Source of the DNA: Bacteriovoracia bacterium
GTDB lineage: Bacteria > Bdellovibrionota > Bacteriovoracia > Bacteriovoracales > Bacteriovoracaceae
Assembly: GCA_046570105.1 (NCBI GenBank)
Contig: JBKHVI010000003.1
Coordinates: 48,807 to 112,806 of the forward strand
Length of the DNA stretch: 64,000 nucleotides
Direction of reading: 5' to 3'
Numbering within the stretch: the stretch's first letter is position 1; every line of letters starts with the position of its first letter. The position numbers are program-made. Shown here one piece after another: positions 39,001-42,000 of the stretch.

Positions 39001-42000
39001 TCGTAAGAGGAATAACCAGCATAGAGATGAGTCGCTCGCGACGATCTTCTAGAATTCTAGTCGCCAGAATTCCGGGAATGGCACAGGCATGACTTGATAA
39101 GAGCGGAATCATCGCTTTCCCTGGAAGACCAAGCTTTCTCATAAAGCCATCCATCAAGAAAGCGGCACGGCCGAGATAACCCACGTCTTCAAGAATCTGG
39201 ATGAATAAAAAGAGCATGAGGATTTGCGGAAGAAATACCACGACACCGCCGACTCCCCCAATCACTCCATCAACGATAAGACTTTGGAGCATCGGTTGAG
39301 TGATGAATTGTTTGACGGTTTCACCTAAGAAACCACAGCCCGCTTCGATTAAATCTTGTAGTGGACCCGCCCAACTGAAGAGTGCTTGAAACATGAGGAG
39401 CAAGAGCGCAAATAAAACGACAAAACCCCAGACAGGATGAAGAGCGACGCGATCAAGCTTTTGTGTCAGAGTATCTGGCTTGAGTGGTGATTCAACTATT
39501 TCCTTGAGCCAACGATCAATCGTCGAGAATTTCTCACGCACATAATCGGGAGCTTTGATTTTCTTCTGATAATTCTCAGGGAGTACAACGGCACGAGGCT
39601 GATGAGCGCTTAGCTCTTGTTCGATAACTGCTTTGAGTTTATCCATCCCATCGCCCGTAACGGCCGAAACCGGCACGACTTTACATTCTGAAAGACGGGC
39701 AAAAGCGTCGATGGATAATTTCTGTCCCCGGCGAGTGGATTGATCCATTTGAGTCAGAGCAATCAAAGGCCTATGACCCAACTCTAAAATTTGTAATAGC
39801 AGGTAGAGTGATTTTTGTAAGTGAGTGGCATCCAGTACAAGAATGAGTGGTCCTGCTTCAGTTTTTTTTCCCGTGAGCCAATCTCGGGCGACTTTTTCAT
39901 CGAGTGTTGCCACATCTAAGGAATACAAACCCGGCAGGTCTATCAGTTCACAAGTCGAATTGCTAAGAATCATGCGCGCTGATTTTTTTTCGACCGTGAC
40001 ACCGGGAAAGTTGGCGACTTTTTGAAAACTGCCAGTCAGAGCGTTAAAGAGTGCAGTTTTTCCAACGTTAGGTGTACCGACCAAAGCGAAGTTCATTTTT
40101 GCGCCTGCTCAATTTGAATCTGCTGCGCTTCATGCTTAGCAAGCGCGATACTGAGCCCTCTGATGCGAACCAAGTAGGGATTTTTCACTAGTGGGGCCAC
40201 GGCAACACATTCAAATTCAATTCCAGAAACAAAACCTAATTGGCGCAAACGTGACGCGATGACGGAGTCTTCATCGGCGATCAGTTCTACGATGCGGTAT
40301 GAATTTGTAGGGATAACATCGGCTAAAGTCATGATGTTTGGTATACCAAACGCGATGCTGCTCGGCAATCGGATGCTAACGAAATCTTGACCTGGCCATT
40401 ACGCTTAACCTCTTGTTATCACCTTGCAAACCCTCATGCCTGGAGCTTTCCATGTTACGTTCCCTGCTGCTTTTATTGCTCATAGTTTCTTGCGCGACCC
40501 CTTATCAAGCGGACAAGACTTATCAGCTCACGCTACTTCACACCAACGATCATCATGGCCGTTTTTGGTCAAATAGAGATGGCGAGTGGGGCCTGCCGGC
40601 ACGTCTTACATTGATTAATCAACTTCGTTCAGAGAGCAAGAAAGCCAATCGTGAAGTGCTCTTGCTTGATGCTGGCGACGTCAACACGGGCATTCCTCAA
40701 TCCGATATGCTAAAAGCTGAGCCCGACTTTAAGGGCATGGCAAAAATTGGTTACGACGCCATGGCGGTCGGTAATCACGAATTCGACAACACGCTTGAAA
40801 CTATTCGCAAGCAAGAGTCTTGGGCAGGTTTTCCTTTTCTTTCGGCCAATATTTATAAAAACGGCAAAAGATTATTCCGTCCCTACATCATCAAAAATGT
40901 CGGTGGACTTAAAATTGCTATTCTTGGTTTAACGACTAAAGACACTCCACTTAAATCAAAGATGGAAGGTCACCAAGGAACTGATTTCCGCGATCCGGTT
41001 GAAGAAGCAAAACTCATTGTTCCAGAATTAAAGAAGAAAGTGCATATCGTGATTGCCGTCACACACATGGGCCACTACCCCAATGAAAAACATGGGGCTG
41101 ATTCTCCGGGTGACGTGACACTTGCCCGCCAAGTTCCAGGCATCAATGTCATCATCGGCGGTCACACCCAATTGCCACTCTTTAAACCTGATGTGCAAAA
41201 TGGCACGATCATTGTGCAGGCCCACGAGTGGGGTAAATATGTCGGAAAAATCGATCTCTCGGTCAAAGGTGGAGTCGTTACACTTAACGATTACAAATTG
41301 ATTCCGGTTAATCATAAAGACCAGAAAGAAAAAATCGCAGAAGACGAAACGCTTAAAAGCTTTCTCGCTCCCTTCAAAGCTTTGGGTGATAAGACTTTAC
41401 TCGTTGATGTGGGTTATACCGAAGAGAGACTCGAAGGTGATCGTAACGTGATTCGAAATAAAGAAACCAATCTTGGTAATTTAATCACGGAAGCCTACCG
41501 CGCAAAATTTAATGCTGATATCGGCATTTCAAACTCAGGTGGTATTCGCGATAGCATTCAACCTGGCAAAATTAACTACGAAAGCGTTCTCACGATTCTT
41601 CCGTTTGGTAACGATGTCGTAACCGTGAAACTTTCAGGCGCTGAACTAAAAAAATATCTGACTCGCCTACTCTCAGAAATGCGACCTGGCAGTGGAAGTT
41701 TTCCTCAGTTCTCGGGGCTCTCTGCGCAATTTAATGCCAAGACTAAAAGCTTTTCAAAGTTAGTGGTTGCTAACAAACCGCTTGATAACAAGAAGCTTTA
41801 TACCATCGCCCTCCCAAGTTTCATCGCTGGCGGTGGAGATAAGTGGCCGGATCTACGAGGCTATACCATGCAAAACTACGGCTTTGTTGATGCCGATATT
41901 TTACGTGAGTACCTGACTCAAATAGGCTTAATTAAAAAAGGACAGTTTGGTCCCTTTGGAGCTGTGAAAGCTACCTACTAATTTAGGTTAAGATTTGATC

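Follow-up and report, generated by a model that had tools for sequence, protein, structure and literature searches.

What acts on the palindrome that stands directly before feoAB in a member of the Bacteriovoracaceae, and which metal does that factor sense? The genome-wide survey's note had described an 18-bp site of this kind upstream of feoAB and other genes and had named a DtxR-family protein as its likely regulator. We analysed a 64-kb window (the whole stretch of DNA in which the site lies) of the source genome, G000, together with genomes of the family and of other Bdellovibrionota. From sequence comparisons, we estimate a probability of about 75% that the site, here called the box, is the operator of an iron regulon, that the family's DtxR-family protein is its reader and that this protein senses iron. 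An unusual DtxR-type repressor, taking on the iron control usually exerted by Fur, very likely docks at this palindrome.

The palindrome before feoAB

The site reads TGTTTGGTATACCAAACG, with one mismatch to TGTTTG-N6-CAAACA, and its inner 16 bp (window 40336-40351) form a palindrome without any mismatch. Only 2 nt separate it from the feoA ATG, and feoB lies directly downstream of feoA in an overlapping reading frame (Table 1). Scored with a matrix built from 10 other G000 sites, feoA being held out, the site reached 23.2. A box is present at -19 to -21 before feoA in 5/5 same-genus genomes, and its flanks have diverged. These results uphold the survey's placement of the palindrome before feoAB. 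The intergenic region is shared with a divergent ushA-like gene, which we list as a candidate target only. Two tandem trypsin-like protease genes (window 36418-38168) follow feoB immediately and in the same orientation, and the second-best box-like site of the window scored 14.9 bits (11258-11275).

The box overlaps the predicted feoA promoter. In all six feoA promoters of the genus, a TTG hexamer stands exactly 17 nt before the TATA(T/C)C of the box centre, the spacers being otherwise diverged, and TATA(T/C)C itself lies 6-8 nt from the ATG. A consensus promoter scan at feoA called no promoter; the -10 does not have the final T of TANNNT. Because the predicted -10 is only 7 nt before the ATG, we infer that the feoA mRNA is leaderless, with an extended -10 within the operator. 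Of 28 bfd promoters, 16 have a -10-like hexamer starting at +22 relative to the first base of the box, 7 at +24 and 4 at +25; the box would thus cover the -35 and the spacer there. Thus, at both feoA and bfd the boxes overlap predicted promoters, as operators of the DtxR family do.

Table 1. Features of the window and box sites elsewhere in G000; positions without a contig name are window positions.
Feature	Position	Strand	Basis or remark
Predicted 18-bp operator, TroR/DtxR-type core TTTG-N6-CAAA	40335..40352	.	Sequence, matrix scores, 5/5 same-genus genomes
Predicted extended -10, TG-n-TATACC, inside box	40340..40345	-	7 nt before feoA ATG; geometry same in 6/6 genus members
Predicted -35, TTGCCG	40363..40368	-	17 nt from -10
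feoA, 79 aa	40093..40332	-	Pfam PF04023 FeoA, E 5.5e-15
feoB, 612 aa	38258..40096	-	TIGR00437 above cut-off
ushA-like 5'-nucleotidase gene, divergent to feoA	40413..41981	+	Gene calls and profile matches
DtxR-family regulator gene, 172 aa, no SH3/FeoA domain	47643..48161	-	PF01325 and PF02742 above cut-off
Membrane protein gene, 394 aa, 4-nt overlap with dtxR stop	46462..47646	-	Weak family matches only
Second conserved element, TGCAAAGAATAATTATCATTTGAC on minus strand, into predicted dtxR -35	48193..48216	-	42/78 dtxR loci
Box before TonB-dependent receptor gene	C6:1526
Box before PepSY-TM gene	C6:6112
Boxes (two) before bfd-bfr	C3:1268 and C3:1308
Box before tonB-exbB-exbD	C25:9287		Absent from the survey's list
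Box before di-haem peroxidase gene	C11:9391
Boxes (two) before DUF4266-DUF3570-ApbE	C73:2541 and C73:2588
Box before sdhC	C8:21645
Box before small ORF	C1:124739

Box sites and their genes in the family

The note had warned against bare pattern counts, and rightly. With two mismatches allowed, the window holds 5 matches against a mean of 5.05 by chance, which is no enrichment, and a degenerate pattern with one mismatch gave control-level counts across the 151 family genomes. Unlike these counts, tests based on position or on a strict pattern separate the site from chance. The strict pattern DGTTTGRYNNRYCAAACH occurs in 115/151 family genomes (323 sites), whereas the reversed pattern, used as control, is found in 21 (23 sites). 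In other Bdellovibrionota it is at background, with 17/207 genomes against 20/207 for the reversed control (counted by hand).

We then scored upstream regions by gene. A box of at least 12 precedes 28/29 bfd loci, taken from the top 30 of 107 genomes after exclusion of G000, whose two bfd sites were in the matrix training set; it precedes 29/48 feoA loci, a set of the 30 best matches and 19 hand-picked loci from which one was removed at a contig end. Downstream controls gave 0 for both genes. Among the 19 feoA loci below 12, five (G040, G058, G065, G078 and G042) have a site of at least 12 within 1300 bp, and four are FeoA domains within fusion proteins. The 49 training sites, which were selected by matrix, form an 18-bp even palindrome with G2, T3, T4, A15, A16 and C17 fixed.

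Nine G000 sites scored at least 18, compared to a mean of 1.05 (maximum 5) in 20 column-shuffled controls, with a matrix made from 49 sites of other genera that had themselves been selected with the first matrix. We rejected one of the nine (C125:198), a terminator-like stem after rplL, as well as a site before a response regulator gene (C9:45779) that was not retained in G071 or G036. The other G000 sites named in the note are present, each upstream of the gene it named, and tonB-exbB-exbD is a predicted further target of the regulon. The survey's inclusion of sdh and of DUF4266-ApbE holds in G000 and not family-wide: with G000 counted, boxes stand at 6/30 sdhC loci and 2/30 DUF4266 loci, so both are lineage-restricted, and the DUF4266 gene was not found in six same-genus genomes. 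One of four TonB-receptor loci in G000 has a box.

Family sites adjoin a FecCD-type ABC operon that includes a haem-utilisation-like gene, and genes for siderophore synthesis, imelysin, TonB, ferritin-like proteins, HiPIP, di-haem peroxidases and Kelch-repeat proteins, the last in 6/30 family loci (L114, L115, L121, L130, L133, L134); many adjoining genes have no Pfam match. Together, the data indicate that the palindrome is almost certainly a genuine operator that is conserved and serves an iron regulon.

Some loci stood out on inspection. Downstream of the top-scoring G000 site (C1:124739; L032 2240-2922) lie a 62-aa ORF without annotation and a 139-aa ORF whose product looks secreted. A GNAT gene with two downstream boxes exists in two diverged copies in G000 (L042 on C118, L033 on C73). 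A BrnT/BrnA-type toxin-antitoxin pair (L039 2579-3092) has a weak box-like palindrome at its start and is probably unrelated.

The DtxR-family protein as the probable reader and sensor

The putative regulator has both the winged-helix and the metal-binding/dimerisation domains that place it in the DtxR family (PF01325, PF02742), and a Pfam profile search found no SH3/FeoA domain match in its 172 residues. The predicted model (pLDDT 88) has its best fold matches in DtxR/IdeR, with a Foldseek probability of 1.0 and an rmsd of about 2 A over about 115-120 residues. The 394-aa membrane protein gene is coupled to dtxR across many genera, and many relatives have a gene of similar size after dtxR. 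An element with the Fur-box-like pattern TGCAAAGAATAATTATCRTTTGAC lies just upstream of the predicted dtxR -35. We rejected its identity as a Fur box since it is present in genus g10, where 0/6 genomes have a Fur match; its second-best match in G000 lies inside a coding sequence.

In 51 aligned sequences, H19, H23, C115 and E118 are invariant and H119 is near-invariant. We assigned IdeR/DtxR numbering from the equal-length match of residues 16-138 to 3-125, together with the MntR alignment. H23 aligns to MntR D8 and DtxR M10, and C115 to MntR E99 and DtxR C102. Of the IdeR-type primary pair (M10 and C102), the Cys is thus kept, and the M10 position is His. The ancillary site of IdeR/DtxR we take to be H79, E83 and H98. 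The positions of H79 and E83 are R92 and F96 here, and the H111 position is variable. Residues H19, H23, C115, E118 and H119 would together form a single metal site. Of the 150 best representatives of 50%-identity clusters, 84 carry the same His/His/Cys/Glu/His signature, which may therefore mark a widespread, uncharacterised class of iron sensors. Look-alike clusters include Verrucomicrobiota and Acidobacteriota, a lead only. In a separate look-up, 1/10 clusters could be named. Among the proteins were tandem two-DtxR fusions of 270-312 aa (P0012, P0013, P0017, P0019, P0021, P0035), one cluster of which is named Ruminobacter.

This set of residues bears on the metal sensed. As far as the available text of two reviews goes, iron sensing goes with Met10/Cys102, the presence of two metal sites and that of an SH3 domain (PMC11672702, PMC7762939), M10 and C102 being linked to iron selectivity (PMC11672702) and SH3-less DtxR proteins being described as not Fe-responsive in vivo (PMC7762939). 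The family protein keeps just the Cys. It is conceivable, albeit fairly unlikely, that the protein binds the box and responds to Mn(II), or equally to Mn and Fe, in the manner of TroR and MntR, so that the iron targets reflect a mixed metal signal. Apart from the missing SH3 domain, this reading draws on the best sequence matches among solved structures, which are to B. subtilis MntR, and on an operator core equal to that of TroR, which in T. denticola responds to Mn and Fe (PMC2628430, available text). However, where MntR has D8, E11, H77 and E99, the family protein has H23, L26, R92 and C115; the targets with annotation serve the uptake, storage and mobilisation of iron, with no Mn transporter among them; and G000 (88% complete) has no Nramp or ZnuA/TroA-family match. 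We lean slightly towards an SH3-less, single-site His/His/Cys/Glu/His DtxR protein as a true Fe(II) sensor and global iron regulator of this Gram-negative predator family.

The distribution of the protein follows that of the box. A dtxR match was found in 142/151 family genomes (three only weak) and an orthologue in 139/151; outside the family, 10/207 genomes have a weak DtxR match (best E 5.7e-21) and none has an orthologue, in agreement with the survey's view of a protein widespread in the family and rare elsewhere. The strict box is present in 111/139 genomes with the orthologue and 4/12 without, a contrast inflated by the kinship of the genomes. In G040, G065 and G078, dtxR directly precedes feoA, and a box of 17-21 bits lies upstream of dtxR. 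Most dtxR loci have no box, which was found at 7/58 and, in a second count, 4/78.

The type of box also changes with the type of DtxR protein. A divergent DtxR in the feoA region (G058, G066, G084, G089 and a second copy in G027, which has two DtxR matches) accompanies TTAG-type sites (TTAG-N6-CTAA). Upstream of distant metagenome dtxR genes, a TGTTAG-N6-CTAACA-type site of at least 10 was found in 22/34 cases compared to 1/34 coding controls, and in 17/23 of those with feoA or feoB nearby, using a TTAG matrix that had been relaxed by hand. In a tree of 64 DtxR proteins, 22 TTTG rows and 28 TTAG/TTAA rows split at one branch (support 99/95); box labels were set by hand with 14 rows unlabelled, and the split counts as one event.

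A DtxR paralogue heads a cassette with a cytochrome c/FTR1 permease gene (loci L160-L167 and L170-L172; in L160 a cation-efflux gene follows) and has its own upstream palindrome, often in tandem; 8/11 score at least 12 with the TTAG matrix, and in three other families the palindromes score low and are still palindromic. The paralogue, found in four families, is possibly mobile; a plasmid search with it gave no match. Separately, G037, G052 and G084, which do not have the main orthologue, have SH3/FeoA-bearing DtxR genes in clusters that also include several feoB-like genes and a gene for cation efflux (L084, L086, L102-L104, L107). We take these clusters to be reminiscent of iron-biomineralisation islands.

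Not every genome fits. Three of them, G033, G067 and G001, carry the box upstream of feoA or bfd and gave no DtxR match; a contig start truncates the usual dtxR flanking gene in G033, and no such gene was found in the other two, so assembly gaps are the likely cause. The survey's G027, listed there with a box before feoA and no DtxR hit, may be another genome than the one so labelled here. In G041 and G034 the usual neighbour gene is present without dtxR; G041 has no box, and in G034 a single perfect box lies upstream of an EF-G-like gene. In G052, without the orthologue, neither of the two feoA loci tested carries a box. Conversely, feoA sites are weak or absent in G007, G055, G069, G003 and G101 despite the orthologue, and a relaxed pattern found no match in five chosen DtxR-positive genomes. 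Overall, the DtxR-read regulon proposed in the survey gains support from the dtxR-feoAB operons, the box type that follows DtxR type, the TroR core and the distribution of Fur, and we consider it highly probable that the family's DtxR-family protein reads the box.

The remaining candidates fare worse. A regulator of the Rrf2/IscR type, or some other one, could bind the box while DtxR merely shares its distribution, an explanation we judge improbable. Rrf2 matches occur in 149/151 family genomes, including box-positive genomes in which no DtxR was found, so the absence pattern cannot separate Rrf2 from DtxR. However, Rrf2 is also present in G037, G041 and G052, all without a strict box; none of three Rrf2 loci in G000 has a box (maximum 5.9); and Rrf2 binding leaves the boxes upstream of dtxR and the change of box type with DtxR type unexplained.

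A Fur-family protein as reader is largely refuted and retains very little probability, because the box is equally common without a Fur-family match (57/77 genomes, compared to 58/74 with one). The idea has some basis, in that G000 has one Fur-family gene (C57) and feoAB is under Fur control in other former delta-proteobacteria (PMC545781, available text). However, about half of the family genomes (77/151) have no Fur-family match, and the box-positive genomes without one include assemblies that are nearly complete and in few pieces (G073, G138, G146). In the delta group, Fur recognises another palindrome, of 17 bp (PMC545781), and 0/30 Fur loci have a box of at least 12. Scans with Fur, PerR and delta-Zur consensus sequences showed no cluster at iron genes. 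We also observed a Fur domain and a FeoA domain in one open frame before feoB, of 261 aa in G027 (L090 639-1412) and 286 aa in G089 (L087 984-1811).

Although the left arm often contains TTGACA and the rplL site resembles a terminator stem, a promoter element or RNA hairpin in place of an operator is just as hard to sustain, since the bfd box lies upstream of the -10 and hence would not be transcribed, the place of the box relative to -35 and -10 varies among genes, both arms are conserved with diverged flanks, and the box is restricted to a single family and a single functional class of genes.

Proposed mechanism and known DtxR-type systems

In the preferred model, the box would be the operator of an iron-uptake and iron-mobilisation regulon bound by the SH3-less DtxR-family protein. 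Fe(II) at the single His19/His23/Cys115/Glu118/His119 site would place a dimer on the box, where it would block RNA polymerase, covering the -35 and spacer at bfd and, at feoA in the source genus, the -10 and the start of the leaderless mRNA. Under iron shortage, the protein would leave the box, and feoAB, tonB-exbBD and the TonB-dependent receptor, PepSY-TM, bfd-bfr and di-haem peroxidase genes would be expressed.

The model would supply a regulator, operator and target list for iron control in Bacteriovoracaceae, for which we found no printed description; our literature search, which covered largely open-access papers, returned none of the box or regulon. It would also offer a direct test case for what makes a DtxR protein prefer iron over manganese, and would mark uncharacterised genes as iron-related (Kelch-repeat, DUF7453, DUF3050 and proteins of about 400 aa without Pfam match). 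Comparative work on archaeal DtxR regulons exists. Based on the available text of the sources, iron control by DtxR-type proteins is already documented for Actinobacteria and haloarchaea and has been suggested for Akkermansia (PMC7762939, PMC10783522, PMC12552655).

The published systems are compared here from the same partial texts. The closest operator is that of TroR in T. denticola and T. pallidum, also a DtxR-family protein with an 18-bp even palindrome, core TTTG-N6-CAAA, and repression near a sigma70 promoter (PMC2628430). The mutationally tested T. denticola operator, ATTTTGATATATCAAAAT (PMC2628430), and the top G000 site are identical in their central 14 bp. In contrast, the target of TroR is the troABCD metal ABC operon, its signals are both Mn and Fe and, in T. 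denticola, it has an SH3-like domain (PMC2628430), whereas the box here has GT/AC flanks and a genome-wide iron target set, and its presumed reader has no such domain. G000 has no TroA-family match, and the dtxR neighbours differ; TroR was compared by description.

Among DtxR-family iron regulators of other phyla, Haloferax volcanii TroR is likewise the primary iron regulator and uses an even semi-palindrome, often in tandem, but it is archaeal and its motif is TTTAGGC-NNN-CCTAAA (PMC10783522). Amuc_1082 of Akkermansia muciniphila, compared by description, is a DtxR-family gene beside a Feo cluster in a Gram-negative bacterium and a proposed iron regulator; the proposal there is based on co-expression, Fur is proposed alongside, and the available text gives no DtxR operator (PMC12552655).

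MntR of Bacillus subtilis is SH3-less and two-domain like the family protein and is its best sequence match among solved structures (E 2e-10). However, the family protein falls below the NCBIfam MntR cut-offs, keeps none of the four MntR residues named above and has iron genes, with no Mn transporter, among its annotated predicted targets; C115, where MntR has Glu, corresponds to C102 of IdeR/DtxR.

The DtxR/IdeR proteins of Actinobacteria share the fold, the equivalents of C102, E105 and H106, and targets that span iron uptake and storage; they differ in their 19-bp TTAGGTTAGSCTAACCTAA operator, against 18 bp here (PMC7762939, PMC11672702, PMC8464063). The family protein further differs in the His at the M10 position, the additional invariant His at the D6 position, Arg and Phe at the ancillary H79 and E83, the lack of an SH3 domain and a Gram-negative host. 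Thus, as predicted from these comparisons, the family regulator resembles DtxR/IdeR in action yet is a member of neither the IdeR, the MntR nor the TroR group.
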